A stretch of 47,599 bases of DNA from Candidatus Iainarchaeum sp. (GTDB lineage: Archaea; Micrarchaeota; Micrarchaeia; Anstonellales; Bilamarchaeaceae): contig JAQTOF010000001.1 of assembly GCA_028713495.1 (NCBI GenBank), positions 1 to 47,599 of the forward strand, read 5' to 3'. Made by a program: the position numbers and the translations under genes. Positions 3,793-34,706 of the stretch are shown here, one piece after another (the first letter of the stretch is position 1; every line of letters begins with the position of its first letter). Below the pieces are notes generated by a model, which searched no databases, was not told the DNA's origin, and was given only the letters and a program-made list of their open reading frames with translations.

Positions 3793-3860
3793 GTGTATGA
3801 CATCGGGAGAAGTATTTAATAAGATTTTACTTCTAGACAAACTGAAGAGGTGGAGTGCAG

Positions 3861-5162
3861 ATGGAATACCAGCATAAATTATTGTTATTGGCAGCGCTGC
3901 TTGTGGCAGTAGCATTATACGTCATGTCAACGACGGCCCAGCCGATTCAGCCCAGCAATGAAACTGAAACGCTTCTCATGAAAAGCGCGGGATTCGGCAA
4001 AGGACTTGGGGATTACACCTATTCCTACAGCGAGACTATGAACGGGTACAAGACCACTTACTTGCTCACCAGATCCGGCGGCAGCGAACTTATCGAGATA
4101 CAGAATGCGCTCTCCACCAAGAAGGTCTACCTGCTGCCGAATGACACCATATTCTGCATAAGATACCCGATCAACGAATCGTGCACTTCAATCCAGCAGG
4201 ACGCTGAGATGCAGAACTACATAAGCTTCGCGAGATCCAAGTTCTTCAACGATACGAATCTAGCTAAGGCAGAAAGCGATCTCCAGACCCTGCTTGACAA
4301 GGAATATCTGCAGCTCGATACCGGGATCGTGGATTCGAGCGTAGGTTCAGTGGCCTGCAAGCAGCTGAGCTATGTCATAGACTACACCAACGCTACCGTA
4401 GGCGATGCGGCCAAATATGGAATCGGCGCAGACTCGCCCAAGCTCTATTATGTGACCAGGTGCATAGCTGAGAACGGCCTGGCTTATGACACCACGCTCA
4501 GATGGTACGATAAAGGCATCAACAACACCCGCGTCATGAGGGTGCTTTCATTCAGGGAGAACGCCACCACGGCCATAACGCCGCCGGCAGAGCTTGTCGG
4601 CGATGCAGTGGAGGTCTTCAGGCAAGAAAGAGAGTGGTGGATCGATCTGGCGACTTGCCACACCGACAAGCAGGGCGATGATAGGGATAAATGCGTATCC
4701 GAGATCGCCCTCAAGCTGCAGAGGAAAGACATCTGCGAATTGGGCGGTGCGAGGAGAAATCTATGCCTGCTGTCCATAGTCCCGTACACCAAGGACGAGA
4801 CCATATGCACGGCCATATCCGACCAGTCGTTCAAAGACGACTGCTATGGCGTGCTGGCAGATGTGAATGAGGACAGCTCTTATTGCGCTAGGATCCAGAA
4901 TGCGTCCAAGGTGCAGACATGCATCAATGTTTCCACGCCCCACGCGCCTGACCAGAGCGGAAATCAGACTGTTGGGGGCGATGAGACCGACACAGCGGCC
5001 AGTGGCGGCAACGAGACTGATACTACGGTAGATGGAGGCAACGATAGCGGCGTGGACATGAACGAGTTCCTCAACTACATAGACAAGAACGACGGCAGCG
5101 ATGGGAATCAGACAGGGGGCAACGAAACGGATACCACAGCCAACGGCGGCGATGAGGGCTGA
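3861..5162 (+). CDS. Secreted or anchored protein with signal peptide, Cys-rich region and N-x-T-rich C-terminal tail
   Basis: N-terminus [22 protein letters not shown]. Many N-x-S/T sequons and a tail of GGNETDTT-type repeats. GAGGTGG Shine-Dalgarno lies 7 nt before the ATG at 3861; the ORF track used the GTG at 3855. Confidence 0.75.
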
Positions 5163-7642: not shown

Positions 7643-7666
7643 ACTTATCACCCGAAAGGGGTATTG

Positions 7667-8047
7667 ATGAAGATACAGGAGCTAAATGTCTACATGGTCC
7701 TTTTCAACAAGGACAGGATACTCCTTCTGAAGCGGGAAAACGGCTTCTGGGAGTTCCCAGGCGGCGGGGTGGATTGGGGCGAGGATCCGAGGGATGCGGC
7801 CATCCGCGAGACCAGGGAAGAGACAGGCCTGACAGCGCATGATGCTAGTTTTGTCATGATAACCTCTGCCACTTATCCAAAAGGCGAGGATGAGAAGCAC
7901 TCGGTCTATATCGTCTATAAAGGGCAGACGGATGGGCTTGATGTGCGGATGTCGTCCGAGCATGTGGAGCATAGGTGGCTCGGTTTGTCAGAGGCCAGGT
8001 TCATGAAGATGGCCATGAACGCCGAGGGCGTACTGGACTATCTCTAA
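7667..8047 (+). CDS. NUDIX hydrolase
   Basis: Nudix box GGGVDWGEDPRDAAIRETREETGL. I chose the ATG at 7667, preceded by AAAGGGG; the ORF track used the TTG at 7664. Confidence 0.85.
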   Translation: MKIQELNVYMVLFNKDRILLLKRENGFWEFPGGGVDWGEDPRDAAIRETREETGLTAHDASFVMITSATYPKGEDEKHSVYIVYKGQTDGLDVRMSSEHVEHRWLGLSEARFMKMAMNAEGVLDYL

Positions 8048-10609
8048 TTACATCGACTTGAATTCTATCAGCATCTTCTCGAGCTCTTCTGCTGTCAGGA
8101 GGAGCAGCGAGCTGCTATCGAGCTCCATCTTTGTTATCAGAGGAGCCACAGACGCAGAGGAATTCAGGAGCGTCTGGAAGTTGTTCTTATCGGCCGGGTT
8201 CTTGAAAACCACTATGGATATGCCATTGCCGATTGTCGAAAGGATCTTCTTCAGGAGTTCCTTCGGATCGCCGCCCTTCTCGTAGAAGTGCAGGAACATC
8301 TGCTGGCCGACCACAGTGAGGACGCTGTCGGCCTCCTTGGATTCGCCAAGCAATGTGAAGGGAATGGCATTGTTGACGCAGATATCGCGCAGGCGGCGCA
8401 TCAGCGCCAGGTATTCGATGGAACGCTTGGTCTTTTCCTCCCAGCTGGCGAGGCCGTAATATCCGAGCGATTCCTTGAGCAGGCCGTGTTTCTCCAAGGT
8501 GTCCAGCAGGAACTCCACGTTGTAGTCGGTTATGTATATCGGCTTGCCCTGGTAGAATATGTCCTTGAAGCCGTTCTTTATCTCGGTGGGCGCCAGAGGC
8601 GTGCACTGCCACCTGTATGTCTCGTTTATCTTCTCGAATATGCCCAGGATGGTGTCTGGAGCCAGGGGTATCTTGGTCCTGGCCACTGGCGGGAAGTCAG
8701 GGACGTCCAGGGAGAAATATATCGCCTCCTGCCTGGCGAAGAGCACGCCTATGCCGACTATGCCTCCTGTCAGTATGATCATGATCCAGAAAAGCGGTTC
8801 AGTGAATATGGTCCTCGCTGCGGCGCGGCTGACTGGCACCGTGGTCTTGAGGCCGCCTGCAGTGAACTCGAACGTGTGCTGACCTAGAGGCAAGGAGGCA
8901 TCACCGAGGAAGCGGCTCATGTCCACAGCCATATGGGTTGTGTCGGTGAACTTATAGGTGCCGTATTTGCCGCCATCGACGCTCACGCTCACATCCTTGA
9001 GCTCGAACGGCTGGCCGGCCATGGATATGTCAAAGTAATAGGTGGATGGTTTCTTCTGATCCTGGCCGGCCCATGTGATGTCTACGGACACCACTTTCAT
9101 GTAGGCCTGCGTGTACACATTGCTTTCATCATCCATCAGTTTCACTATGTATTCGCCGCGGTCCACGTATATCGGCACATCGAAGGACTTGTCGGCCTGC
9201 ACGTTGACATTGCCCTGACTGATGCTTTCAACCTCTGTGCCGTTGCTGTCGGTTATTGTAAGGAACATGTTGGGCTGCGCCGCCTTCGGTTCGCGGAGCA
9301 TCGCGTTCATCCTGATGACGCTGCCGCTTATGTTGGTGGGGACGACCGTGCCGCCCTGCTCGATGAACATATCATTGCTCCGTTTCTTCTCAAGACGTGT
9401 GTACAAAGTCTCGCGCACAGGGAAATCCGATGCTGATGAATAGCCTATGAAATCCACCTTGACAGTGACGTTCGGATTCGTGAACTGATCTGAGAAGAAG
9501 TAGCTCTCGCCTGCGTAGAACGACTGGTTGGCGAACAGGTACTCCTTGGATGCTGCATTGGGCTCTGCCCAGGGGATGTCGAATACGATCGTTGAGACGT
9601 CGTCAGCTGCGCTTGTGTAGTTGCCGCGCCAGCCCCCGTCCAGGGTCTGCGGCAGGAAAACGAATGCGCCATCGCCTTTGCGGATGATGCTGACCGAACC
9701 GTATTTCATTTCACCCTCCCAACCGCCTATCGGCGCAGCCCTGTAGAGCGGCTGGAAGATGTGCATCGCAGGGTCAGTCTCTAGCTGGATGTTCTCATCG
9801 AATGTCACTGGTAGCGATCGTAGGACCTCCTGCGGGGTCGTCTGCACCAGGGTCCCGTTGAGCATCTTGTTGAACGGCTGGCCGATATATACCACGACCA
9901 CGCCGCGGTCAGCCAGGTGGTTCATGGTTATCATGCTGTTCACGCCGAGCATTTCCATGGGTATCACGCCGCTCGGCACTATGACGACCGCTCCACTGGG
10001 GATCGTCTCAAGCTGCTTCAGCGTTATCTCGTTGAGTATTATCTTGCGCTTGGCCAGGTTGGAGCGCAAAGAACGTATGAAGTCAGGATACATTCCGGCC
10101 TCGAAGCGCTCGCTGTTGAGGATGAACACCTCGGAGGGCAGCTCCTGATCATAGGTCGATATGATGACGGAATAATTGACGAGATTGCTCGTGTTATAGT
10201 CTATGAAGACCGCGGCCACGTTCTTCGGGCTTCCCCTTTCGCCTGCGCTGAGGACATCGCCGCTCACGATCGTGTTTTCTATGCCCGGCTTCTCAGAAGG
10301 CGGCTGGAAGACGCCTGCGCCCTGGAACGCTTGGGTGTTGAGGAAAAGCCAGCCTATGGCCAGCACGATTATGGCTATGAAGACGAAAGCACCGAAGACG
10401 ACGAAGTTGAAACCCCCGGGCGGAGCCTGAGAGACCATCGCTTCGGCTTTCTTCTCCTCTTTCTTCGGAGTGAGGACCTTGCGGAGCATGTCCTTTATCT
10501 TTTCTATGGGCGGCCTTTCCTTTGTCCGATAGTGGCTCACGTACTGGTACTTCTTCCTGAGCTCGAACCTGTAGGTCTTTTTCTTTATAGCCGCGTCCAT
10601 CCCTGCCAT
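8048..10609 (-). CDS. Large bitopic membrane protein: basic N-tail, TM, ~500-aa extracytoplasmic region, second TM, ~220-aa C-terminal domain
   Basis: 853-aa ORF. Hydrophobic segments FNFVVFGAFVFIAIIVLAIGWLF and LFWIMIILTGGIVGIGVLFA. Last gene of the ATPase operon, 7 nt after the preceding gene. Confidence 0.8.
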   Translation of the reverse strand: MAGMDAAIKKKTYRFELRKKYQYVSHYRTKERPPIEKIKDMLRKVLTPKKEEKKAEAMVSQAPPGGFNFVVFGAFVFIAIIVLAIGWLFLNTQAFQGAGVFQPPSEKPGIENTIVSGDVLSAGERGSPKNVAAVFIDYNTSNLVNYSVIISTYDQELPSEVFILNSERFEAGMYPDFIRSLRSNLAKRKIILNEITLKQLETIPSGAVVIVPSGVIPMEMLGVNSMITMNHLADRGVVVVYIGQPFNKMLNGTLVQTTPQEVLRSLPVTFDENIQLETDPAMHIFQPLYRAAPIGGWEGEMKYGSVSIIRKGDGAFVFLPQTLDGGWRGNYTSAADDVSTIVFDIPWAEPNAASKEYLFANQSFYAGESYFFSDQFTNPNVTVKVDFIGYSSASDFPVRETLYTRLEKKRSNDMFIEQGGTVVPTNISGSVIRMNAMLREPKAAQPNMFLTITDSNGTEVESISQGNVNVQADKSFDVPIYVDRGEYIVKLMDDESNVYTQAYMKVVSVDITWAGQDQKKPSTYYFDISMAGQPFELKDVSVSVDGGKYGTYKFTDTTHMAVDMSRFLGDASLPLGQHTFEFTAGGLKTTVPVSRAAARTIFTEPLFWIMIILTGGIVGIGVLFARQEAIYFSLDVPDFPPVARTKIPLAPDTILGIFEKINETYRWQCTPLAPTEIKNGFKDIFYQGKPIYITDYNVEFLLDTLEKHGLLKESLGYYGLASWEEKTKRSIEYLALMRRLRDICVNNAIPFTLLGESKEADSVLTVVGQQMFLHFYEKGGDPKELLKKILSTIGNGISIVVFKNPADKNNFQTLLNSSASVAPLITKMELDSSSLLLLTAEELEKMLIEFKSM

Positions 10610-10616
10610 AGTAACA

Positions 10617-11417
10617 CTACTGGACGACTTCCAGATATCCTTCGTTCACTAGCTTGTTCAGCATCTCCTCTACCCGGCCATCCGCCACCTTGAACACCTT
10701 GGCGAACTCCGTGATGTTTATGGAACCGCTGTGCTCGGATACCCATTCCTGGAGCTTGGCCTTGAGGGCATCGTCCGATAACCCTTCCAGCTGCTGCACC
10801 CTGAGCTTATACTCGTCATTCTGTGTCTTGAGTTCGTAATTCTGCGATGTCAGCGCCTGGCTCTGCTCTGTGAGGCGGTCCACCTTCTTGCGGTAGTCAT
10901 CCACCTCCTTCTTGAGCGAGTCATAGGCTGTGTAGAGCTTGGTGTAGTCCATGGTCACAGAGCCCGCGAGCTCCTTTATGGCATTCTCCACCAACTGATA
11001 AAGCGTCTTGTTGTCCACCTGGTAATAGGATTCTATTAGGGAGAGGATGTTGAGCAGGTAGCGGATGACGTCCACCCTGCGTTTTTTGGGACCGATCTCC
11101 GGAGGGATGGTGTAGAGGACCTCGACCTCGTCCTCCTTTATCTTGACTATGGAGAAGAGATAGGGGTTCTTGTCTATGTCCCTGCTCTCCACGTATATCA
11201 CGTTCAGGATGTCCTTCTCCGGCGCGATCTCCAGGAAGGATATGGAACGCAGGATCGTGGCCAGGTCCTTGGGCTTGCCCTTCACGAGCTTGCCTTTTAT
11301 CTTGAAGGCATCCACCTGCGGGGGATGGGGCGCTTCTGTTGCGCCGGCTGGGCGGGCTGGTGCTCCTGGCATCGCAGGGGCTTTCACAGACTTTGCGGTC
11401 GGTAATGGAAGCGGCAT
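10617..11417 (-). CDS. Orphan protein: Pro/Ala-rich N-terminus, globular core, heptad coiled coil, C-terminal winged-helix-like module
   Basis: 266-aa ORF. Coiled-coil stretch KKEVDDYRKKVDRLTEQSQALTSQNYELKTQNDEYKLRVQQLE, and C-terminus ITEFAKVFKVADGRVEEMLNKLVNEGYLEV. Confidence 0.75.
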   Translation of the reverse strand: MPLPLPTAKSVKAPAMPGAPARPAGATEAPHPPQVDAFKIKGKLVKGKPKDLATILRSISFLEIAPEKDILNVIYVESRDIDKNPYLFSIVKIKEDEVEVLYTIPPEIGPKKRRVDVIRYLLNILSLIESYYQVDNKTLYQLVENAIKELAGSVTMDYTKLYTAYDSLKKEVDDYRKKVDRLTEQSQALTSQNYELKTQNDEYKLRVQQLEGLSDDALKAKLQEWVSEHSGSINITEFAKVFKVADGRVEEMLNKLVNEGYLEVVQ

Positions 11418-11427
11418 TGGTCACACC

Positions 11428-11910
11428 TCATCTCTTTTTCTTGGCCTTGGCTCTCGGCTTCTTTTTAGCCAGCCTTTCAGGCCTTTCCTCTGGCTCCTCG
11501 GGTTCCTCTGGCTCAGGCATCGGCACCGGAGGCGGAGGCTTGGGTGGCTGAGCCATGCCCAGTTCCACGGCCGGCGTGTATCTGAATAACGGCAGGGCCA
11601 GGACGAACAGGGCCACCACGAACGCTGATACCATGGCCCAGGCATCGAACCTGCCTGAGCTTATGATGGAATATAGCAGGAGGATGATGACGAGGCCTGC
11701 GAATATGCTTGCGAAAAGCATTGTCCTCTCGAAGGAACGCCGCCTCTCCATGTGCTTCGGCAGATCGGCCTCGCATACGTAGAGCTCGTTCATCTGGGCC
11801 ACTCCGAAAAATTTCTTTATGGCCCTTATGGTCCGGATGATGCGATCCTCCTTGATCGGGACCGCGGCCTTGTTCTCCACATTCGCTTGGCAAGCGACAC
11901 AGACTTTCAT
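11428..11910 (-). CDS. Small membrane protein: N-terminal Cys motif (CVAC..C), two TM helices, Pro/Glu/Lys-rich tail
   Basis: 160-aa ORF with TM segments MLFASIFAGLVIILLLYSII and AMVSAFVVALFVLALPLF. Tail is PPKPPPPVPMPEPEEPEEPEE..KKKPRAKAKKKR. Confidence 0.7.
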   Translation of the reverse strand: MKVCVACQANVENKAAVPIKEDRIIRTIRAIKKFFGVAQMNELYVCEADLPKHMERRRSFERTMLFASIFAGLVIILLLYSIISSGRFDAWAMVSAFVVALFVLALPLFRYTPAVELGMAQPPKPPPPVPMPEPEEPEEPEERPERLAKKKPRAKAKKKR

Positions 11911-11921
11911 GGCAAATCCCT

Positions 11922-13505
11922 CTACTCTTCGAGAATGACCTGGCTTATCTCACGCCCGACACCGCCGCTCTTCTTCAGGTCGACCTTGCCGAAGATGTTG
12001 ATGATCGTGATATCATCTATGCCGGCGTCCTTGAGGAAGTCACCGATGTTCCTGCGGGCGATCCCGTCGCGTTCCAGAGTGATGACGAACGACACCACGT
12101 CCATGCGGCGGTTGCCCTTGTCGAATATCTTGGTGAGTTCCTCAGTCTTGTCATCGGCCAGACCGAACTGGCGCAGCTTCCTCCTGAAATCCTCCTTAAG
12201 GAACGATACGCTTCTTGACACTGCAACATCCCTCCTCTGTTTTTCTGTAAGAACCTCGCTAAGGTCAAGGAAGTATTCCTTGCTCGGCTCCTCTCCCTCG
12301 ATCTTGCTGATTAGGAATGTCGAGGGGTACGGAGTCGGGAGAGTAAGCGATAGGTTGACGGCGCACTGGCCGACACCCAGCCTGCTTATCTCGTCGCGCA
12401 TGTAGTCGCTGAAGTTGAGAGAGCCCTGAAGATAGTCCAGGAACTTCTCGAACTTGACCTTGAGCATGAATGTGGTACCGACGTTGGAGAATATGGCCTC
12501 GCTTATGTCTGTCGGGTTCTGCGATGCGATTATCATGGCGAAGTTGTACTTACGGCCTTCACGGACGATCATGACCGCGTCGCTGTTCTCCTCTTTGCCT
12601 ATCTTCCAGGCTTCGTCCAGCACTATCAGCAGTTTGAGCCCTTTGACATTGGACGCGCCTTCCAGCCTCATCTTCTCCTTGATGAACTGCAGGAGGGTAA
12701 GGGCGGCCAGGGCACGGGATGTCTCGTCAGGAAGGCCTGAGAGATCCAGGTCCACGAGGCCTGATGTGACGAGCTCGTCCAGCTTCACTGTGCTCTGCTG
12801 GGCGAAGAAGTCCTCGCCGGACTTGGTGAACTGCTTGAGCCTGTATATCGCGTTCTCCAGCTCAGCCGGGAACTCGTAGGAGCCTACCTGAGCCTGCTCT
12901 GTGAGCACACGGACCACGTCCTTCAATGTGGGGGGGCTGAGCGGCTTGCCCAGCTCGTCCTTCTGTTCCCTGGCATCCATCCTGAACTTGTCCTCTATGT
13001 AGATCTTCTCTATGGCCTGCTCTGTGAGCCGCCTCTGCTCAGGGTAATTGGCGATGTCTGTTAGCAGCTCCAGGGTCCTCATGACCTGTTTTATGCGGTC
13101 ATAGGGCTTCATGCCGCCCAGATCCAGCAGGTTGAGATAGGAACCCTTGCCCAGGGATATGACCTTGCCGCCGCTCTGCTTAACCCAGTCCTTGTACTCG
13201 CCCGCCCAGTCTATGATGAGGGCGTTGCTGTTCCAGACAAAGGCTGAACGGAGCAGGAAGGTCTTGATGAAATAGGACTTACCTGAACCTGATATGCCGA
13301 CCACGGCGATGTGTGGGTTGGCGACGTTCTCGAAGCTCCAGTAGAAAGGGACGTTGAATATCTTGGTCCTGCCGATATAGATGGCATTGGTCGGGTCACT
13401 GAAAAGGACCTCCATGGGCGGCTCTGGAGGGTAGACCAGTATGCTGCGCCTGGCTATGGCCGTGTTTGGCAGTTTGACGAGCTTAAGCTTGCCTGCTATC
13501 GGCAT
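11922..13505 (-). CDS. FtsK/HerA-superfamily P-loop ATPase (HerA/VirB4-like, DUF87-type)
   Basis: Walker A VVGISGSGKSY, Walker B LLIVLDEAWK, and VREGRKYNFAMIIASQNPTD (Arg-finger/sensor region shared by HerA and VirB4). The start overlaps the upstream stop (TGATG). Confidence 0.85.
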   Translation of the reverse strand: MPIAGKLKLVKLPNTAIARRSILVYPPEPPMEVLFSDPTNAIYIGRTKIFNVPFYWSFENVANPHIAVVGISGSGKSYFIKTFLLRSAFVWNSNALIIDWAGEYKDWVKQSGGKVISLGKGSYLNLLDLGGMKPYDRIKQVMRTLELLTDIANYPEQRRLTEQAIEKIYIEDKFRMDAREQKDELGKPLSPPTLKDVVRVLTEQAQVGSYEFPAELENAIYRLKQFTKSGEDFFAQQSTVKLDELVTSGLVDLDLSGLPDETSRALAALTLLQFIKEKMRLEGASNVKGLKLLIVLDEAWKIGKEENSDAVMIVREGRKYNFAMIIASQNPTDISEAIFSNVGTTFMLKVKFEKFLDYLQGSLNFSDYMRDEISRLGVGQCAVNLSLTLPTPYPSTFLISKIEGEEPSKEYFLDLSEVLTEKQRRDVAVSRSVSFLKEDFRRKLRQFGLADDKTEELTKIFDKGNRRMDVVSFVITLERDGIARRNIGDFLKDAGIDDITIINIFGKVDLKKSGGVGREISQVILEE

Positions 13506-14329
13506 CAGACCACACTCTCTTCAAGCTCTTGGGCAGTGACCGGGAAGAACTTCTCCCATTCGAAGCACTTGAGCATCTCGTCGCCAGTTAGCTGGACGAC
13601 TTCCACATTCAGGGCGTTCGCCAGCACGGTCCTCAGCTCGTTGGACTGGGTGCGCGCCGCGGCTATGGCCGCATCCTTGCTCAGGCCGACCGCAGTGGTC
13701 TGCGCATAGGCGATGATGCCCATGGGCTTCACGCCCTTTATCAGGCGTGTGAGCTCAGCATCCCTGATGGTGACTTCCTTCTCGAACTTGTCCATCTTGA
13801 GCACATCAGGCTGGGGCTTGTCCCTTTCCCTGGCCAGCCTAAGCTGGGCTTCTGCTCTCTTGGTCTCGATCATCTTCCTTTTCTCGCCCACGTCCTCCAC
13901 GAAAAGCATGTAGGCGATCTTTGTGACGTATTTGATGTTGGATATAGCCCTTTCGAAGAACTGCGTGTAGGCGATATTCTCCTCAGCAGACTTCTCGGTC
14001 GCTGACTCGAATATCTTCAGGCCCATGAAGGCAGATGCATAGAAGACGCCGTTGACGTTCTTGACTATGACGTCCTGGGATGGCGGGATCTCATAGCCTG
14101 TGTCGGTCATCATGACGATCTTGGCCCTTTCAGTGACAAGGGGTATGAACAGATAGCCATAGCGCCAGAAGAGCACGCCGAACAACGAGCCCAGTCCGGC
14201 CAGTAGGCCGCCTATAAGGGCGAATGGGCCGACGCCTGCGGTGCCTCCGATGAAGGCGAGCAGGGCTCCCACAATGCCGACAGCTATAGAAGCTATTGTA
14301 TACGTCTTCGCGCCACCAGTGATAGCCAT
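13505..14329 (-). CDS. Membrane protein with two N-terminal TM helices plus ~200-aa soluble domain; first gene of the ATPase operon
   Basis: 274-aa ORF with IASIAVGIVGALLAFIGGTAGVGPFALIGGLLAGLGSLFGVLFW, followed by a mixed alpha/beta region. Confidence 0.8.
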   Translation of the reverse strand: MAITGGAKTYTIASIAVGIVGALLAFIGGTAGVGPFALIGGLLAGLGSLFGVLFWRYGYLFIPLVTERAKIVMMTDTGYEIPPSQDVIVKNVNGVFYASAFMGLKIFESATEKSAEENIAYTQFFERAISNIKYVTKIAYMLFVEDVGEKRKMIETKRAEAQLRLARERDKPQPDVLKMDKFEKEVTIRDAELTRLIKGVKPMGIIAYAQTTAVGLSKDAAIAAARTQSNELRTVLANALNVEVVQLTGDEMLKCFEWEKFFPVTAQELEESVV

Positions 14330-14370
14330 GGAGTATCCCTCGATTCAAGGTTAATAGCATAGTTCCAAAA

Positions 14371-14383
14371 GGGTATAAAAACC
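14371..14383 (-). promoter_or_regulatory. TATA-like element (GGTTTTTATACCC on the minus strand) upstream of the ATPase operon
   Basis: It is the only A/T box in the 102-nt spacer, about 45-50 nt upstream of the ATG at 14329, which is preceded by a GAGGGA Shine-Dalgarno-like site. Confidence 0.35.
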
Positions 14384-14431: not shown

Positions 14432-15742
14432 TCAGTCCTTGACCGCATCCTCAACTATCTTCTTCGCATGCCCTATATAGGTGGAATAGTCGAACAGCTC
14501 ATCCGCCTCTTTCTTTGTGAGCAGTTTCTGCGCAATTACCAGGTCCTTGAGATGACGGCCTTTGGAGAACGCTTCCTGGGCGAGCTGGCGCACTGTCTCA
14601 TGGGCATCCTGCCTGCCGAACTTGCCTGTCTCCACCAGGTGTATCATCACCCGCTCTGACATTATCAGGCCCTGGGTGAGCTCAAGATTGCGCTTTATGT
14701 TCTCAGGATAGAAGACCAGACCATCCAGTATCTTAGCCATCTGGAGAGCCATGTAATCCACGCAGATGAAGCTTTCGCCGAATATCGCACGCTCGTTCGC
14801 GCTGTTGGTGAGGTCCCTCTCGTGTTCTAGCGAGATGTTCTCCATCGCGGTCATGGCGTTGGCGCGGACCAGCCTCGCGAGGGAACAGACGCGCTCGCTC
14901 TTGTGCGGGTTGCGTTTCTGCGGCATAGTCGATGAGCCGACCTGCTTTGAAGAGAACGGCTCGGATATTTCGCATATCTCGGTCCTTTGGAGGTTGCGGA
15001 TCTCTTTCGCGATCTTCTCCATGAATGCTGCGGTGAGGGCCAGGGCGCATAGCACTTCTGCGTGCCTGTCCCTTTGGACGACCTGGTTCGTGACAGGATC
15101 CTCTTCCAAACCGAGCTCTTTCATGACAAGCTCCTGTATCTTCGGGCCGTGCTTGCCGAATGTCGCCATCGTGCCGACAGCTCCTGACATCTTGCCTACC
15201 GCGATGCGTCTCTTAGCCTCGGAGAGGCGTTCCTGGTTCCTTTTCAGCTCCTGATAGTATAATGCGAACTTCATCCCGTAGGTTGTCGGAACGGCATGCT
15301 GGCCATGTGTCCTTCCTATGCAGACCGTGCCCTTGTGCTGCAATGCGAGTTTTTTCAGCGTGGTCGCAAGAGCGCCAAGGCTCTGTTCGAGCTGTTCTAT
15401 GGCTTCTATGAAGATCAGCGCAGTGGCAGTGTCCTCTATATCATAACTGGTAGCACCGAGATGGACATATTTGCCTGCACCCCCTGCCTGTTCTGTGAGC
15501 GCACGGACCATGGCCATCAGATCATGGTGGATCTCTTCCTCTATCTCAGCAACCCGTTCAGGGGTGACCCTTTCGGCAGCAGCAGCTATCCTGGCCGGAG
15601 CGTCTTTGGGGATGTTGCCCAACTGCGCGTGCGCTTTGGCCAATGCGACTTCTACAGCCATCCATTTGCGGAGCTTGGCCTCGTCATCAAAAACAGCATT
15701 CATCTCTGTCCTGTATCTCTCTTCGAATGGAGAAACCGCCAT
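14432..15742 (-). CDS. purB: Adenylosuccinate lyase
   Basis: Fumarate-lyase signature GSSTMPQKRNP, with full-length resemblance to PurB. Confidence 0.92.
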   Translation of the reverse strand: MAVSPFEERYRTEMNAVFDDEAKLRKWMAVEVALAKAHAQLGNIPKDAPARIAAAAERVTPERVAEIEEEIHHDLMAMVRALTEQAGGAGKYVHLGATSYDIEDTATALIFIEAIEQLEQSLGALATTLKKLALQHKGTVCIGRTHGQHAVPTTYGMKFALYYQELKRNQERLSEAKRRIAVGKMSGAVGTMATFGKHGPKIQELVMKELGLEEDPVTNQVVQRDRHAEVLCALALTAAFMEKIAKEIRNLQRTEICEISEPFSSKQVGSSTMPQKRNPHKSERVCSLARLVRANAMTAMENISLEHERDLTNSANERAIFGESFICVDYMALQMAKILDGLVFYPENIKRNLELTQGLIMSERVMIHLVETGKFGRQDAHETVRQLAQEAFSKGRHLKDLVIAQKLLTKKEADELFDYSTYIGHAKKIVEDAVKD

Positions 15743-15793: not shown

Positions 15794-16579
15794 ATGGCGA
15801 AGGTACGAGTTCTCAGGAGGCAGGAGAAGGCATACATCGAGCTGCCGCCAGAGATGACCGGCCATGAGGAGCTCGAGCTCTTCCTTTTGAAAGACGGCTA
15901 TTACCTGCTCACAGCGCCGCTCGGGCAGCCGGTCAGAAAACAAAGCGGAGCGATAAGCGATGTGGAACGCGCAGTCCTCAAGAAACTTCTCGCGATACGG
16001 TTCGAGAACCGCACTCCTGCTTATGTGACGAAAGCGCTTTCAGAACGCGAGAAGGAAGTGCTGGGGGAACTCGAGCAGAAGCGCCTTGTGAACGTCTTCA
16101 GGGGCAACAAGTACAAGGACGGCGTGTACAACATCAGCGACAGCATCTACCCGCTCCTCTCGCAGAAACAAAACGAATCAAAAGAGGCCAGACCAAGCGA
16201 GAACGAAGCCGGAAGGGCTGCTCCCCCAAGAGATGCCCTGCAACCAAGCGGTGCGTTCAGCGTATTGAATACTCGGGGCTTCATCATTGTCCAGGACAAA
16301 AGGGAAGCTATGGTGCTCTCCGACCAGATGTCCCAGCAGATGAAAAAAGGGGAAGTCGTCGGGGTGAAGGGCTTTGACGGCAGGTTCTACATAGTCACAA
16401 GGAGTTATCTCGCAGAGGCGTGCAAGAAGATAAATTCAGTGCTGAAGGAAGACATGGACGCGCCATCAATCGCATCCGCTGCCAAACTCGATCCTGATGG
16501 ATGCATCGCTGCGCTGAGGCTGATGGCCGAGAACGGCGATGTGATAGAGAGGAAAAGGGGCGTCTTCGCCCCGGTGTAA
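15794..16579 (+). CDS. Hypothetical protein with possible AbrB-like N-terminus and winged-helix-like segments
   Basis: 261-aa ORF at leaderless spacing from the TATA. It contains MAKVRVLRRQEKAYIELPPEM, and the C-terminal LRLMAENGDVIERKRGVF resembles a wHTH wing. Confidence 0.65.
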   Translation: MAKVRVLRRQEKAYIELPPEMTGHEELELFLLKDGYYLLTAPLGQPVRKQSGAISDVERAVLKKLLAIRFENRTPAYVTKALSEREKEVLGELEQKRLVNVFRGNKYKDGVYNISDSIYPLLSQKQNESKEARPSENEAGRAAPPRDALQPSGAFSVLNTRGFIIVQDKREAMVLSDQMSQQMKKGEVVGVKGFDGRFYIVTRSYLAEACKKINSVLKEDMDAPSIASAAKLDPDGCIAALRLMAENGDVIERKRGVFAPV

Positions 16580-16588
16580 GGGTTCTCC

Positions 16589-17710
16589 ATGATAATAAAG
16601 GACCAGCTGCATGGCACGATCGAATTCGACGAATTGGAAGGCAGGATAATAGACACGGCAACCTTCCAGCGGCTGAGACGGATAAAACAGATGTCCATCA
16701 CCAACCTGGTCTATCCAGGCGCCAACCACAGCCGGTTCGAGCATTCCATAGGCACTGCGCATCTTTCTGAGATCATAGCGCGGAGGGTGGGGCTGGACGA
16801 GGACGAGATAAAGAAAGTGAAGCTCTACGGCCTGCTCCATGACATCGGCCATACCGCCTTTTCGCATGAAGGCGAGGATGTCGTGAAGAAGTATATAGGC
16901 GACCATGAGGAGCTGGGCAGGAGAAAGATGGTAAAAGGCGAGATAGCGGACCTGCTTTCAGAGAACTACAAGCCTGCTGAGATAGCTGATATAGAGAAGT
17001 CCGGCCATGGCAGCATAATAGACTCTGCCCTTGGCGCAGATAGGATGGACTACCTGAAAAGGGACGCGATAAACACAGGCGTGGCTTATGGCCTGATAGA
17101 CACCGACAGGATAGTGCATACCTTGGAGATGAAAGATGGCCAGCTCTGCATAAGCAAAGGAGGGTTGGAAGCTGCGGAATACCTGCTGATAGCGCGGTTC
17201 ATGATGTTCTCCACTGTCTATCTCCATAGGACCGTGAGGATAGCCACTGCCATGCTCTATAGGGCCATAGAAGGCGCGATAGAGGACAAGACACTCAAGC
17301 CAGAGCAGCTGGCAGAGATGGATGACGAGAGCGCGCTCACAACCATGGCGCGGTCCGGGAAAGGCGCTCCGTATGCGAAAGCGTTGCTCCAGAGGCGCTT
17401 ATACAAAGAGGTCTGTTCTGTGCCCAAAGAGGGATGGAGCATCGAAAAGGCGCAGAGCGTGGGGAAGGAACTGTCGAAAAGGTTCAACTGCGACATGATA
17501 GTCGACTATCCGCACGAGTTCTTCAAGCCTGTCGAGTTCAAGGTGGACACAGGCAACGGCCTCAGGCCCATAGCAGAGCTTTCCGAGCTTGTGCGTTCGC
17601 TCAAGAAGGCAGAGGAAGGCAGGATGAGGGTGCTTGTGCTGGCTGAGGAGAATGTCAGGGAAAAGAAGGGGCAGGATATCGAGAAGGCAGTCAGCCCACT
17701 ACGAAGTTAG
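16589..17710 (+). CDS. HD-domain phosphohydrolase (COG1078 / dNTPase-like)
   Basis: HSRFEHSIGT and LLHDIGHTAFSH metal-binding motifs. Confidence 0.85.
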   Translation: MIIKDQLHGTIEFDELEGRIIDTATFQRLRRIKQMSITNLVYPGANHSRFEHSIGTAHLSEIIARRVGLDEDEIKKVKLYGLLHDIGHTAFSHEGEDVVKKYIGDHEELGRRKMVKGEIADLLSENYKPAEIADIEKSGHGSIIDSALGADRMDYLKRDAINTGVAYGLIDTDRIVHTLEMKDGQLCISKGGLEAAEYLLIARFMMFSTVYLHRTVRIATAMLYRAIEGAIEDKTLKPEQLAEMDDESALTTMARSGKGAPYAKALLQRRLYKEVCSVPKEGWSIEKAQSVGKELSKRFNCDMIVDYPHEFFKPVEFKVDTGNGLRPIAELSELVRSLKKAEEGRMRVLVLAEENVREKKGQDIEKAVSPLRS

Positions 17711-25041: not shown

Positions 25042-25779
25042 ATGAAAAGCGGGAGAAAACAGGAGAGCAACCAGGAGAAGTTCCACAAGCTGGCCCGATG
25101 GTGGGATGGGACGGCCACGCCTTTCGCCAGGAGCTGGGAGAGCGCGAAGAACCTGTTCTACCATGATAAGGTAGCCAGCACTCTGGATGGGGCCCTCAAA
25201 CGCGCAGACGCCAGGCACACGGCGTACATATTCGCCCTTGCGGCATTGATGACATTCATCATATCCGTCATCGCTACGCTGGAATCGCTTGAAATCACCA
25301 AATACACCGTTGATATCCTAGAAGAGATTAGCGGGACGACGCTTCAGACGGATTTCGGCAACCTGGGAGCGCTGATCGTGTTCCAATACACCACCGTCCC
25401 GATTACTCTCGTGTTCATAGCCATCCACGAGCTTCTGGTATACCGGATAGCGCGGCTCACAGGTGGCAAAGGCACGTTCGGCCAGCAGTTCTATCTTTCC
25501 TCGCTCGTCTCGCTCGCCATGGCGTTCCTGTCAGCGCTCTACCTGTTCATGGCGCTGCCTTGCATCGGCATACTGGCCCTGCTCGGCCTCGTGATCGGAA
25601 GCGCATATCTGGTGCTCTATGTGAGCCCCAAAGCGTACGCGCGGGTCCATGGTATAAGCTACGTCCATGCATTCGCCATAAACATCGTGCTCCTGATATT
25701 GCGCATGGCAGCGTTGTACTTCATATCCAATGCGATGGCCGGCCTCCTGGGAATCCAGCTGGTCGGAGGATCATTCTAA
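25042..25779 (+). CDS. Multi-pass membrane protein (Yip1-like topology)
   Basis: Soluble N-terminus followed by about 5 hydrophobic helices. I chose the ATG at 25042; the longer ORF from 24826 would overlap the divergent gene. Confidence 0.6.
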   Translation: MKSGRKQESNQEKFHKLARWWDGTATPFARSWESAKNLFYHDKVASTLDGALKRADARHTAYIFALAALMTFIISVIATLESLEITKYTVDILEEISGTTLQTDFGNLGALIVFQYTTVPITLVFIAIHELLVYRIARLTGGKGTFGQQFYLSSLVSLAMAFLSALYLFMALPCIGILALLGLVIGSAYLVLYVSPKAYARVHGISYVHAFAINIVLLILRMAALYFISNAMAGLLGIQLVGGSF

Positions 25780-25790
25780 CGGTGCGTCAT

Positions 25791-26747
25791 ATGGCATTCA
25801 AAGCTGAGAAATTCATAGTTGAATCTATAGGGGAGATACAGAAGAAGATAGGCACGGAGAAGGCGATAACCGCCCTTTCAGGAGGGGTGGACTCCTTTGT
25901 CGCGGCCACGCTCGCAGCCAAAGCCATCCCTGGCCAGCTCCGCATAGTCTATGTGGACAACGGCCTCATGAGGAAGGATGAGACAAAACGGGTGAGCGAG
26001 ACGGCCAAGAGCGTGGGTGTGGACCTCAAGGTCGTTGATGCGAGGAAAAGGTTCCTGGACGCATTGAAGGGAGTCAGTGACCCTGAGACCAAACGGAAGA
26101 TCATAGGTGAAGCGTTCGTGAGGATATTCGAGGAGCAGGCCAAGGAGCACGGCTCCACATTCCTTATCCAGGGCACCATAGCGCCCGACTGGATAGAAAG
26201 CGGCGGCATGGGCCGGGACACGATAAAGAGCCACCACAACGTCGGTGGCCTACCTGAGAAGATGCACCTCAAGCTATGCGAGCCGCTGCGCGAGCTTTAC
26301 AAGCATGAAGTGAGGATGGTCGGGAAGGCATTAGGCTTGCCCGAAGCGATCTACCAAAGACAGCCCTTCCCTGGCCCTGGCCTTGGCGTGCGGATAGTGG
26401 GCGAGGTGACAGAGGAGAAGGTGGCGATCGTGCAGGGGGCCTGCGATATTGTCGAGGCCGAGCTCGATTCCGCTGTCGCGTCAGGCAAGATGGAGAAGCC
26501 ATGGCAGTATTTCGCTGCGCTTCTCCCCTCGAAGACGGTCGGCGTCAGAGGAGATGAGAGGGCGTACCAGTACACTGTTATCGTGAGGGCAGTGAGGAGC
26601 CTGGATGGCATGACAGCCAATTTTTCGCACATACCTCCCGAAGTGCTTGAGAAGATATCGACAAGGATGACTAACGAGATACGCTCTGTGGGAAGAGTAG
26701 TCTACGATATAACCAACAAGCCGCCCGGGACCATAGAGATGGAATGA
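25791..26747 (+). CDS. guaAB: GMP synthase, ATP-pyrophosphatase subunit (subunit B)
   Basis: PP-loop SGGVDS, and C-terminal KPPGTIEME typical of the GMPS dimerisation domain. Homology begins at the ATG at 25791. Confidence 0.92.
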   Translation: MAFKAEKFIVESIGEIQKKIGTEKAITALSGGVDSFVAATLAAKAIPGQLRIVYVDNGLMRKDETKRVSETAKSVGVDLKVVDARKRFLDALKGVSDPETKRKIIGEAFVRIFEEQAKEHGSTFLIQGTIAPDWIESGGMGRDTIKSHHNVGGLPEKMHLKLCEPLRELYKHEVRMVGKALGLPEAIYQRQPFPGPGLGVRIVGEVTEEKVAIVQGACDIVEAELDSAVASGKMEKPWQYFAALLPSKTVGVRGDERAYQYTVIVRAVRSLDGMTANFSHIPPEVLEKISTRMTNEIRSVGRVVYDITNKPPGTIEME

Positions 26748-30937: not shown

Positions 30938-31255
30938 CTAGCCGGAGCGGCCTTCCTTCGGTATCTCGGCCGGTACTGGGAGGATGCACCCGCATTCGTC
31001 TCCTGATGCGCCGACTTTCACGTTGGACATGTTGACCGGGTTGTCGAGCTTTGTGGTTTGTCCGCCGCAGCTGGCAGAGATGGCCCCTCGCTGCGAAGGA
31101 ACGCCTTCAGGGCTCACGAAGAAGCTGGCTGACAAGCTTATATCGTCAGAGCAGCCGAGGTCTTTTCTCAGCTGTGATGCGTCTACAGAACGGAGCAGAC
31201 GGCCGACCAGCGGACCTGGTTTGACACGGCTCGTGTCGCAGTCAGACGGGGTGCA
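30938..31255 (-). repeat. 318-nt duplicated 3' coding module, copy 1
   Basis: Aligns without gaps to 33815..34132 at high identity by eye. Confidence 0.8.
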
Positions 31256-32257
31256 TTTAGGGGGTTCTGGCTCCGGCACCTTAACTTGTATACATTCGCA
31301 CTCCGCACAGACATAGCCCTCTCCGCAGCCACCCCGGGGTCTTGTCGGGGATGTCGTGGATTCATCGCACTCCTCTGTGGGCTGCGCTATGCCGTCGTTG
31401 CATGTCTTGGACGGTTTTACGCAGTTGCACCGCACGCAGCGCTCGCCCTTATCGCAGCCTCCGCGCGGCTTGCCGCTGCTTGGGTCGCATTCCTCGCCCG
31501 GGTTTATGCCTTCGCTGCCGCAGAGATCGTGGTAGAGGTTCGAGCAGAAACATGGCTCAGGCGGAAAATCTGCGCAGTCAGGCAGGGTCACATCAATCGT
31601 CTCGCTGTAGTCATTGACCACAGTGAAGAGATCGCCACCTTCAGTGCGGTAAGCACCAGGTTGGGCATAGAGCTTTTCTATCTCCTCCTGGGTACGCAGC
31701 CTTTTCCTAGTGTTAGGGTTCTTGACTAGCTCCGGAAGGGATACCTTCTCCCTGGTGAGCAAAGGCGCTTCCTGGCCACGCCTGGCGCATGGATCCGCTT
31801 TGACCCTCGCCATTATGCAGTCCGGAGAATTCTCGTCCTCCAGAGGAAGCTTGATGAACCTGCCGTCAGTGTACGTATCCCTGAACTCCTGCAGCAGGTT
31901 GCCTGCAGGATCCTTGAGCTCGGACTTTTCGTCAGTAGTATCGCAGACGTTATCTCCCCTGTAGCCGTCTTCCTTGGAATAGTTCTGATTCTTGACAGGC
32001 TTACCGCTGCTGTCCAGCAGCACTTTGCCGGTCCGTATATCACGTTTGTATGGATGGCCTTCGATGTCGGCCATGAATATGCCGTCGGCTTTGATAGCTA
32101 TGGGTTCCACCTTCGGCTCGGTGTGGCGGAACAAAAGGACCGCGGCGGCTGCGGCAACCACGACTACCGTGGCGACTCCAGCTACGATACGGCTACTGGT
32201 CCTTGAGCTTTTAAACGTCTGGCTTCTCTGCGCCCTCTGTTCGTGTTCCAACATCAT
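30938..32257 (-). CDS. N-terminally anchored extracytoplasmic Cys-rich protein, paralogue 1 (shared C-terminal ~105-aa module)
   Basis: TM segment IVAGVATVVVVAAAAAVLLF. Contains C-N-D-G-x4-E-E-C-D-type Cys repeats. The C-terminal module is about 80% identical to that of 33815..34705. Confidence 0.8.
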   Translation of the reverse strand: MMLEHEQRAQRSQTFKSSRTSSRIVAGVATVVVVAAAAAVLLFRHTEPKVEPIAIKADGIFMADIEGHPYKRDIRTGKVLLDSSGKPVKNQNYSKEDGYRGDNVCDTTDEKSELKDPAGNLLQEFRDTYTDGRFIKLPLEDENSPDCIMARVKADPCARRGQEAPLLTREKVSLPELVKNPNTRKRLRTQEEIEKLYAQPGAYRTEGGDLFTVVNDYSETIDVTLPDCADFPPEPCFCSNLYHDLCGSEGINPGEECDPSSGKPRGGCDKGERCVRCNCVKPSKTCNDGIAQPTEECDESTTSPTRPRGGCGEGYVCAECECIQVKVPEPEPPKCTPSDCDTSRVKPGPLVGRLLRSVDASQLRKDLGCSDDISLSASFFVSPEGVPSQRGAISASCGGQTTKLDNPVNMSNVKVGASGDECGCILPVPAEIPKEGRSG

Positions 32258-32267
32258 AACATCAACC

Positions 32268-33710
32268 TCATGATCGTGATCTGTTGCGGTCCAGCTGCAG
32301 ATATTTGTTGCGGTCCAGCAGCAGGTAATCGCCCCTTATGATAGACACATTCTCCTGTCCGCGCATTCCGCCGCCCATCGCGAACTCCAAACGTATCTTC
32401 TTGGCGCGGTAGAACGCACTGCCATACTCCTGTGTCCTAAACATTTCGTCCAGCTTGCGCCTGAGCAATGGGTCGCTGTCGAAGAGCGACTGGAGCACGG
32501 CGGGCCTGTCTTCTGGGCTTGCGCCAAGGTAAGGATTTAGCCTGGCCAGCACGACATCCGTCTCTGCTTCGGTAAGCAGCCCCCCCATCCTATTCACCAT
32601 GCGATTCGACAGTTTGGCTTCCTGCATGGCCGCGACAAAGACCTTCGCATCCCTGCTGAGGATGTCAAGAGCATCGAAAAGCGTTTCGTCTCCCCTCAGC
32701 TCCTCCTGAATGGCTCTGGAAATGGCTGGGCCCCGCCCTGCGACCTTGGCTATAGATGCTAGCTTTCTGATCGCATAGTCGTGCGCCTCATCGAGCCTTT
32801 CCGCGCTTATGCCGGCATAATGTTTAGCCATCCTTCTCTTGGTCAGGTAATTGGAAATCATGCTGGCGAGGAAGCCAAGGCCTGTGAGGCCATAGAAAAC
32901 TGATATGACGCCTTTCACGCTGTCAAGCGGAGGGAGGTGCAGTTTGGTTTCCCAGATGTCTCTTATGACTGCGGAGACATCTTTATGGGACTCCATCACA
33001 CCGTTGATTCCTGTGGCGATGACCTGGAATGCGTCTGTCGAGAACAAGGCATAGCTGACCATGCCAATGGTCGCAACGGTCCAGGTAAACGGACTGGTGA
33101 GGAACCGCTTCACACGGCTAGGGCGTTTCAGCGGTGTTGCTGGACGCGGGAGCACTACGGTTGCAAGAGGTAGTGGGGCTAGATTAGGCGCTGGAGCAGC
33201 AGGAACTGCTTCGACAGCGGGATCGCCGAGGTCCACTGTCCCTGGCGCTGCAGATGCTTGCCTGGCCTCGATGACACTAAGAACGTTATTGATGCCGTCG
33301 TCGATGGAATCATCAGCTTTTGGAGCATCTGAGATATCTACATCATCTGAAGCGAACTCGGTCGCAGCGCGGGCATCTGCGCTATCCACATTGTTGCCTG
33401 GCGCCGGAGATGGAGCGAACAGTTCCCGCAGTAAGCCTTTTTTGGTGATTGCCATGCGAAGGGGCGCCAGCTCAGGGTTAGTTGCGAAATCCTTTACTTC
33501 GCTAATGCCGCGCTCTCCACAGGCCTTTTTGGCAGATGCCAGGAGTTCGTCCCTGCCCATCTGCATGAGAGAATCAAGGCTATAGGCGACCTTTAGGGCA
33601 GCAGGCGGTTCACTGAGCGGAGCTTCCTGTGATCTGACTGCTGCCGTGGGCTTGACCCCATTGGCTCCATCAGGCTTGCCCTTACGTTTTCTGTCTTCCA
33701 ATACACCCAT
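32268..33710 (-). CDS. Orphan membrane protein: basic/disordered N-region, two central TM helices, helical C-domain
   Basis: 480-aa ORF with TM segments FTWTVATIGMVSYALF and VISVFYGLTGLGFLASMI. GGTGGG Shine-Dalgarno, and TATA-like TATTTAAAAAC about 60 nt upstream. Confidence 0.75.
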   Translation of the reverse strand: MGVLEDRKRKGKPDGANGVKPTAAVRSQEAPLSEPPAALKVAYSLDSLMQMGRDELLASAKKACGERGISEVKDFATNPELAPLRMAITKKGLLRELFAPSPAPGNNVDSADARAATEFASDDVDISDAPKADDSIDDGINNVLSVIEARQASAAPGTVDLGDPAVEAVPAAPAPNLAPLPLATVVLPRPATPLKRPSRVKRFLTSPFTWTVATIGMVSYALFSTDAFQVIATGINGVMESHKDVSAVIRDIWETKLHLPPLDSVKGVISVFYGLTGLGFLASMISNYLTKRRMAKHYAGISAERLDEAHDYAIRKLASIAKVAGRGPAISRAIQEELRGDETLFDALDILSRDAKVFVAAMQEAKLSNRMVNRMGGLLTEAETDVVLARLNPYLGASPEDRPAVLQSLFDSDPLLRRKLDEMFRTQEYGSAFYRAKKIRLEFAMGGGMRGQENVSIIRGDYLLLDRNKYLQLDRNRSRS

Positions 33711-33814
33711 CTTTGCCCACCGCTTTTAAATGTTTTAGTACGCATATATTTGTGTAACTAAGGGTTTTTAAATATAACGATAAGGACAGAGAAGAAAGAA
33801 AAGATGAAAAAGAA

Positions 33815-34132
33815 TCAGCCGGAGCTGCCTTCCTTAGGTATCTCAGCTGATGTCGGGAGGATGCACCTGCATTCGCCGCCTGGTGCGCCGACTTTCACGT
33901 TGGACAGGTTGGCCTTGCTGTCGAGCGCTGTGGTTTTTCCTCCGCAGGTGGCAGAGATAGCCCCTTGCTGTGAAGGAACGCCTTCAGGACTCACAGAGAA
34001 CTTGGCTGACAGTCCTATATCGTCAGAGCAGCCGAGATCTTTTCTCAGCTGTGATGCGTCCACAGAACGGAGCAGACGGCCGATCAGCGGTCCTGGTTTG
34101 ACACGGCTCGTATCGCACTGTGCTGGGGTGCA
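33815..34132 (-). repeat. 318-nt duplicated 3' coding module, copy 2
   Basis: Aligns without gaps to 30938..31255. Confidence 0.8.
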
Positions 34133-34705: not shown

Positions 34706-34706
34706 A

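Follow-up and report, generated by a model that had tools for sequence, protein, structure and literature searches.

We analyzed a window of 47,599 nucleotides of archaeal DNA (contig JAQTOF010000001.1 of assembly GCA_028713495.1, forward strand) and describe here an operon of five minus-strand open reading frames (ORFs), designated genes A to E from first to last, whose second gene encodes a P-loop ATPase and whose products A, C, and E are membrane proteins with two transmembrane (TM) helices each, as judged by hydropathy (Table 1). The ORF listing of the window, together with a direct reading of the sequence, places the five genes, their junctions, and a TATA-like element where the original prediction, made from the letters of this DNA, had put them. 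Genes A and B overlap by one nucleotide in the string TGATG, which marks them, on the evidence of the sequence, as translationally coupled, and the gaps at the B/C, C/D, and D/E junctions measure 11, 10, and 7 nt, respectively. Upstream of the operon, a box of the form T[TA]T[AT][TA]A lies 25-70 nt (mostly ~40-55 nt) 5' of the start of A in 69 of 70 related loci, and GAGG(G/T)A stands at the position matching the Shine-Dalgarno-like motif in most of the related loci displayed. The flanks are occupied by housekeeping genes, namely those for eIF2-gamma, a glycosyltransferase, DUF460, TFE-alpha, a NUDIX protein, adenylosuccinate lyase (ADSL), an HD phosphohydrolase, and PAC2. GC content is flat over the locus, and no tRNA or Rfam element was found inside the operon.

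Table 1 Features of the operon, in window coordinates (pLDDT, predicted local distance difference test).
Feature	Position	Strand	Basis or remark
Gene A, 274 aa	13505..14329	-	ORF; hydropathy
A, two N-terminal TM helices, residues ~8-56	14162-14308	-	Hydropathy
A, soluble domain, residues ~62-269	13523-14146	-	
Gene B, 527 aa	11922..13505	-	FtsK-HerA-superfamily P-loop ATPase, VirB4/CedB branch
B, Walker A GISGSGKS	13275-13298	-	
B, Walker B LIVLDEAW	12606-12629	-	
Gene C, 160 aa	11428..11910	-	ORF; hydropathy
C, two-TM hairpin, residues ~66-112	11575-11715	-	Hydropathy
Gene D, 266 aa	10617..11417	-	AlphaFold2 model, pLDDT 74.5
D, single 75-residue helix, residues 136-210	10788-11012	-	AlphaFold2 model
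D, C-terminal winged helix, residues 215-258	10644-10775	-	AlphaFold2 model
Gene E, 853 aa	8048..10609	-	Hydropathy; AlphaFold2 model, pLDDT 83.4
E, TM1, residues ~67-93	10331-10411	-	Hydropathy
E, TM2, residues ~603-627	8729-8803	-	Hydropathy
E, cytoplasmic C-domain (225 aa), residues 630-853	8051-8722	-	AlphaFold2 model
TATA-like box TTTTTATA	14374..14381	-	~45 nt 5' of gene A ATG; read directly
Shine-Dalgarno-like GAGGGA	14336..14341	-	6 nt 5' of gene A ATG

Genes A and B as predicted parts of one motor

The Walker A, Walker B, REGRKYN, and SQNPTD motifs foreseen for B are all present, and their residues are nearly all invariant across 13 orthologues (69-86% identity). B further carries a conserved C-terminal domain of ~140 aa to which no fold is assigned. 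Three Pfam models scored above their cut-offs, namely DUF87, the HerA central domain (1e-15), AAA_10 (2e-13), and the TraG P-loop (1e-10). Among NCBIfam models, the highest scores were obtained with CedB (73 bits), a VirB4 family (70 bits), another VirB4-like family (69 bits), and CedD (67 bits), followed by HerA (50 bits). B nevertheless lies outside every named equivalog, because all scores fall far under the curated cut-offs (73 against 700 for CedB, 67 against 600 for CedD, 46 against 643 for VirB4_CagE, and 50 against 567 for TraC). On these scores, B is best described as a separate orthologous group that is not CedB, CedD, or VirB4 proper. The ATPase had been expected to be a HerA/VirB4-superfamily protein tied to membrane partners, to sit in no named HerA, CedB, or VirB4 equivalog, and to have neighbors that match no named component, and all of this is what we found. 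In B orthologues from other metagenomes, LAGLIDADG inteins occupy the Walker A motif (P0122, 1196 aa) or the Walker B motif (P0123, 1026 aa), a placement typical of indispensable ATPases.

It is very improbable that B is a soluble HerA-type repair helicase or the ATPase of a HerA-based antiphage defense. B shares the DUF87/HerA central P-loop domain with the HerA-NurA systems and matches several PADLOC HerA and DndH models with E values of 1e-12 to 1e-19, and its PDB profile matches consist solely of HerA, DptH, and VirB4 ATPase cores, defense HerA proteins among them. However, the HerA equivalog models give 35-50 bits against cut-offs of 800-970; no NurA, Mre11, Rad50, Sir2, DUF4297, or Dnd partner was found at the locus, where B is accompanied by three membrane proteins instead; and the chromosomal position is fixed across the loci examined, unlike that of defense islands. 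In PADLOC, A, C, and E had no match, and D had only three weak ones (E 0.002-0.009), all through its coiled coil.

Gene A begins with the two TM helices that had been predicted for it, followed by a soluble domain, and profile searches against Pfam, NCBIfam, and PDB sequences returned no match. We compared the A family by hhalign with the N-terminal regions of seven ATPases (689-913 aa), six of which are full-length proteins of ~870-910 aa. The proteins of ~890 aa open with two TM helices, followed by a soluble domain equal in length to A. These template ATPases cover positions 72-587 of the 590 of the CedB model, and one of them, P0175 from locus L086, directly follows CedA1- and CedA-like genes. 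The A family aligned with these Ced-like N-termini over 229 collinear columns (probability 83%, E 9e-6), and the alignment was retained when the TM helices of A were removed (probability 88.5%, E 2.7e-6). The score of 46.3 compares with at most 19.4 in 60 column shuffles, the best of which had an E of 0.055, and with 18.9 for the reversed alignment. As a control, D and E showed no similarity to the same ATPase template, including its C-terminal extension (E 0.12-0.13).

These alignments indicate homology between the soluble domain of A and the N-terminal domain, anchored by TM helices, of Ced-like VirB4-type ATPases. Because A aligns with both the TM segment and the N-domain of these proteins, A and B are predicted to constitute a split VirB4/CedB-type ATPase whose N-domain is supplied in trans by A, so that the motor would take its place beside the ATPases of Ced and Ted, which are domesticated type IV secretion systems (T4SSs), and not in an unplaced clade. 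CedB and CedD both have the architecture TM, VirB4-like N-domain, and ATPase, and both are required for DNA import (PMC11868833). The motor appears to work like CedB, TedB, and VirB4 and to descend from the same stock, yet it is a member of no named equivalog. Four orphan partners had been proposed for B; C, D, and E remain unmatched, whereas A is to be removed from that list.

Conservation, genomic setting, and locus variants

To follow the operon beyond the window, B relatives were scanned in one genome per GTDB species, which yielded 263 confirmed relatives, and the best 80 loci were inspected. All 80 belong to Micrarchaeota-type metagenome-assembled genomes, with B identities of 66-95%. 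The order A-B-C-D-E on a single strand was found in every one of them; 69 are complete and 11 are cut by contig ends. This conservation of the five-gene order goes far beyond chance, and the linkage anticipated for related genomes is kept at every locus examined. Median identity to the proteins of the window was highest for B (76%), followed by A (65%), D (57%), C (43%), and E (43%). At the same loci, the flanking genes reached 71% (ADSL), 69% (PAC2), 64% (HD), and 50% (TFE), all lower than B. ADSL recurs upstream among the related loci, and TFE, the glycosyltransferase, and NUDIX recur downstream. The operon is vertically inherited at a fixed chromosomal site and is not part of a mobile element; the syntenic flanks agree with the housekeeping setting that had been proposed.

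It is extremely unlikely that the operon serves an integrated plasmid or virus in conjugation or packaging. A related ATPase of ~450 aa (P0149) does adjoin TnpB, a methylase, and a T2SSE-type ATPase, and searches of PHROGs returned weak terminase and FtsK-like matches of B, whereas the partner proteins had none there beyond weak matches of D through its coiled coil. However, no integrase, relaxase, capsid, or replication gene was found at the locus, GC content is uniform across it, the same chromosomal neighbors recur between species, and the pattern of conservation follows vertical descent.

In 32 of 63 loci, ADSL is the gene immediately 5' of the operon and shares its strand, and at loci L084 and L085 a gene for phosphoribosyl pyrophosphate synthase ends 20 nt 5' of the B orthologue. 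In the window, genes of nucleotide metabolism surround the operon: ADSL (14432-15742), NUDIX (7664-8047), an HD/HD_assoc_2 phosphohydrolase (16589-17710), and GMP synthase (25560-26747). Close relatives of B, D, and E are essentially all labeled Micrarchaeota, Micrarchaeia, or Bilamarchaeaceae; the NCBI label 'Candidatus ainarchaeum sp.' on the contig probably does not reflect its phylogenetic position.

A wider search with a B profile against 1.84 billion representative proteins separated the family into three graded tiers. The first comprises full-length B orthologues (350-580 bits) in archaeal housekeeping contexts; the second, proteins of ~890 aa (140-215 bits) with the ATPase at residues ~286-650; and the third, smaller proteins (360-460 aa), of which one lies in an element-like context. 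A further 80 loci came from a metagenome scan and were classed with profile hidden Markov models (HMMs) for the five proteins into four groups: the five-gene operon, a tandem-A variant, A-B-D, and B-D. In the tandem-A variant (loci L119, L121-L124, L126-L130, L135, L138, and L153), two A paralogues and a separate ORF for the last ~100 aa of B precede C, D, and E. This variant recalls the CedB/CedD pair, which carry different parts of the VirB4 N-domain (PMC11868833).

Neither C nor E was detected by the profile HMMs in the A-B-D or B-D loci. Because these distant loci keep only A-B-D or B-D, the universal core consists of B with D, usually joined by A, and the extracellular component lies outside it. 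Of all partners, D stays linked to B most widely in the distant loci. Large unannotated proteins near B in L081, L084, and L085 were considered as divergent forms of E and set aside, being polytopic (8-12 TM helices) and unrelated to it.

Locus L086 (8659-14396), an archaeal locus in a Logan assembly, is Ced-like. It holds a CedA1-like gene of 84 aa, a CedA-like gene of 291 aa (82 bits), a two-TM protein of 65 aa, and a 913-aa protein composed of a TM segment, an N-domain, the ATPase, and a C-terminal extension of ~270 aa; two unannotated genes of 432 and 119 aa follow. No homologue of C, D, or E was found in this locus.

The partner proteins C, D, and E

Neither C, D, nor E matches a curated family. 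C starts with a basic, cytoplasmic N-domain of ~60 aa and continues through its two-TM hairpin to a conserved Y-x-P behind TM2 and then to a variable, basic Pro/Glu/Lys tail. The two helices and the Pro-rich, basic tail are thus as predicted, whereas the Cys motif noted for the N-domain is only partly conserved. Family matches in Pfam and NCBIfam were sub-threshold and driven by composition, and the CedA1 models gave no match, although pilins, being short and divergent, may escape sequence tests. C is present in every complete five-gene locus.

The AlphaFold2 model of D consists, in order, of a disordered N-terminal tail, an alpha/beta domain (residues 34-134), the long helix, and the winged helix. 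The helix and the winged helix agree with what had been read from the sequence; the structured N-terminal domain had been missed. Using Foldseek, we obtained nothing significant for D beyond its winged helix, which superposed on the CdvB winged helix 2xvc with a probability of 1.0, a TM-score of 0.74 (target length), a root-mean-square deviation of 1.4 Å, and 27% identity. By sequence profile, 2xvc was matched with an E of 0.002, and EAP30/Vps36 with an E of 1e-4, under the family cut-off in Pfam. The coiled coil of D repeatedly attracts annotations as ZapB, FtsB, or YabA. We discounted the ESCRT, ZapB, and YabA matches, as they lie under the cut-offs and reflect a generic winged helix or coiled-coil composition.

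These features of D bring in the alternative that the operon is an intracellular module for DNA handling or cell division, with B as an FtsK-like DNA pump or a membrane-remodeling ATPase, D as its recruiter, and A, C, and E as tethers at the division site. We consider this doubtful. It would agree with a universal core of A-B-D or B-D, with the proximity of the D winged helix to those of CdvB and EAP30/Vps36, with the annotations drawn by the coiled coil, and with the conservation of B at the level of an essential housekeeping protein that hosts inteins. FtsK is reportedly, in the account of Iyer et al. from 2004, a member of the same ATPase superfamily as B. D also resembles CdvA in combining a beta-rich N-domain with a coiled coil. 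However, the CdvB match covers 48 residues of a very common fold and the remaining similarities are those discounted above; Pfam detects no Snf7/ESCRT-III domain, and no Snf7 or Vps4 gene was found as a neighbor. B stays under the FtsK_SpoIIIE (PF01580) cut-off (20.2 against 24 bits, in the P-loop region only) and is nearer to CedB and VirB4, and A has a VirB4-type N-domain. AAA proteins near B in L084 and L085, considered as a link to ESCRT, proved to be RFC-like.

E has a cytoplasmic N-terminal tail, TM1, an ectodomain of ~510 aa, TM2, and the cytoplasmic C-domain. The large ectodomain is in keeping with the original prediction; the single membrane passage is not, since E has two TM helices and a conserved 225-aa domain on the cytoplasmic side. 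In the model, the ectodomain is composed of a beta-sandwich, an alpha/beta domain (residues 171-346), and three immunoglobulin (Ig)/macroglobulin (MG)-like sandwiches, and the C-domain of a winged-helix-like and an alpha/beta part. Foldseek searches with this model gave generic MG/Ig-like matches only. No Pfam, NCBIfam, or PDB sequence match was obtained for E or for its C-domain alone, and no sequence relatives of E were found outside the related loci. Median identity by region is highest in the C-domain (48%) and lowest in the Ig-like region (29%); the ectodomain evolves fastest, as expected for a surface-exposed part. A possible PD-(D/E)xK nuclease motif in the C-domain (RDIC...GESK) was suggested by eye; no profile match supports a nuclease fold. 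In an alignment of 77 sequences, D742 is invariant and E756 and S757 are nearly so, while the listed conserved positions do not include the lysine.

Micrarchaeota belong to the DPANN archaea, are ultra-small, and live in association with hosts. The same motor might act on proteins, assembling or anchoring a surface structure or delivering effectors at host contact, with E as an adhesin or stalk and B extracting or inserting subunits as VirB4 does for pilins. We regard this as rather unlikely. The fast-diverging ectodomain of E would fit such a role, and bacterial VirB4 is described in T4SS machine assembly and pilus biogenesis (PMC12102498). In the SPEARE giants of Nanohaloarchaeota, also DPANN, Ig-like repeats outside the cell are combined with a TM helix, an ATPase of VirB4/TraG-like type, and a coiled coil; these proteins have been proposed to act as a host-directed secretion device (PMC10266531). 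The likeness to SPEARE is one of described elements; there, a single giant polypeptide carries what five small-to-medium proteins carry here, and the ectodomain of E spans 510 aa, not thousands. By contrast, no pilin-like or effector-like gene was found in the operon, the A-B-D and B-D variants lack E and C, and E is conserved best on the cytoplasmic side, not in its ectodomain.

Relation to Ced, Ted, and other systems

We interpret the operon as a chromosomally fixed, vertically inherited relative of the Ced and Ted systems, built around a split VirB4/CedB-type hexameric ATPase and with nucleic acid as its most likely substrate, and we give this reading a probability of about one half. Our analysis makes the operon a strong candidate for carrying DNA or further macromolecules through the envelope of these host-dependent cells. 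A supplies the two-TM anchor and, by homology, the VirB4-type N-domain, B supplies the ATPase core with intact Walker A, Walker B, and arginine motifs, and the two may assemble into a membrane-docked ring. D would be a cytoplasmic adaptor, probably dimeric through its 75-residue helix, and its CdvB-like winged helix would serve protein-protein contact. C, with its two-TM hairpin, and E may form a lineage-specific membrane and surface module in which E would extend from the cell surface as a 510-aa stalk built from Ig-like domains. B would then hydrolyze ATP to drive a polymer across the single membrane, most likely a nucleic acid taken from outside or from a host. We rank nucleic-acid import first because the import of DNA is the sole activity demonstrated for CedB and CedD, the closest characterized relatives (PMC9905601, PMC11868833), and also because purine-nucleotide salvage genes repeatedly adjoin the operon. 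The reading is further supported by the family scores of B, which are best for CedB and VirB4 and exceed those for HerA, by the homology of A, and by the constancy of gene order, promoter, and chromosomal neighbors. The strong conservation of B, its inteins in some orthologues, the membrane nature of A, C, and E, and the fast evolution of the E ectodomain also speak for it. An analogy is provided by the ultra-small Patescibacteria, in which a chromosomal T4SS without relaxase is retained and is essential for epibiotic growth (PMC12102498).

Several observations weigh against this interpretation. Pfam and NCBIfam models detected neither a polytopic VirB6/CedA-like channel nor a VirB2/CedA1-like pilin within the operon, to which this search was confined, and the proposal of a 'self-contained' trans-envelope apparatus for DNA or protein transfer goes beyond what the locus displays, with no such component in the operon and with distant loci dropping E. 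C, D, and E are without homologues in the Ced-like locus L086. The A-B-D or B-D core is cytoplasmic or membrane-peripheral and need not span the envelope, and the 66-95% identity of B across the phylum is unusual for secretion or conjugation ATPases. Finally, by structure the D winged helix comes nearest to a protein of cell division, and the similarity of A to the N-domain is remote (hhalign probability 83-88%) and sequence-based.

Ced, known from Sulfolobales (CedA, CedA1, CedA2, CedB, CedD, and CedE), and Ted, known from Thermoproteales, are chromosomal, domesticated T4SSs that import DNA (PMC9905601, PMC11868833). The operon shares with them a TM-anchored motor of the VirB4/HerA clade with a VirB4-type N-domain, a chromosomal location, the lack of a relaxase, and a monoderm archaeal envelope. 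CedB is the top-scoring curated family for B, and A aligns with the Ced-like N-domain. However, N-domain and ATPase are encoded here by separate genes, and neither a CedA/VirB6-like polytopic protein nor a CedA1/TedC pilin was detected. A, C, and E had no match to the CedA and CedE models, although the same models catch the L086 neighbor at 82 bits. C, D, and E have no counterpart in that locus, and B scores about ten-fold under the CedB and CedD cut-offs. Moreover, all 80 related loci inspected belong to Micrarchaeota (DPANN), whereas Ced and Ted belong to Thermoproteota.

With bacterial VirB4, the motor shares the superfamily branch and the order of VirB3-like TM segments and N-domain ahead of the ATPase. 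It differs in its archaeal lineage, in its accessory proteins, and in the 46-70 bits that VirB4 models give to B, and no VirB6, VirB8, VirB2, or TrsD-type partner was detected in the operon. The T4SS of the bacterial candidate phyla radiation (CPR) is similar in that there, too, a host-dependent lineage of ultra-small cells has kept a single copy by vertical inheritance and has no relaxase with it (PMC12102498). We found no description of the present operon in the literature. If placed correctly, it would add to the Ced/Ted/T4SS family an architecture in which the motor is split and is accompanied by three partner proteins that lack recognized relatives.

DPANN archaea obtain nucleotides, lipids, and other building blocks from their hosts, and to our knowledge Micrarchaeota have no defined, conserved machinery for uptake or for interaction with a host. 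The operon offers a concrete candidate, being constant in gene order, membrane-embedded, slower-evolving in B than its housekeeping neighbors, and kin to the only archaeal DNA importers shown so far; it also defines genes that can be tested in the few Micrarchaeota-host pairs in culture. We tentatively suggest, with low confidence, that it could correspond in DPANN archaea to the chromosomal T4SS that is essential in CPR bacteria and could act as a conduit for feeding on the host, through which the split A+B motor, the new D adaptor, and the new E stalk with C would pull host nucleic acids or other macromolecules into the symbiont. If this were true, the operon would explain in molecular terms how these archaea acquire nutrients, an answer long sought, and its components would differ from those of every described secretion or uptake system.

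The window contains a second uncharacterized cluster at 30938-38265 on the minus strand, where six consecutive co-directional ORFs (439, 480, 296, 416, 399, and 371 aa) have no Pfam match at E<=0.01, the one exception being an alanine-zipper coiled coil in the last of them. The gene directly upstream, at 38363-40663, has the same orientation and encodes a 766-aa protein with a PP2C phosphatase domain. Two plus-strand ORFs, at 3855-5162 (435 aa) and 15794-16579 (261 aa), are likewise without Pfam match, and the 261-aa ORF recurs at 29 of the 80 related loci, no more than 4 kb upstream of the operon.

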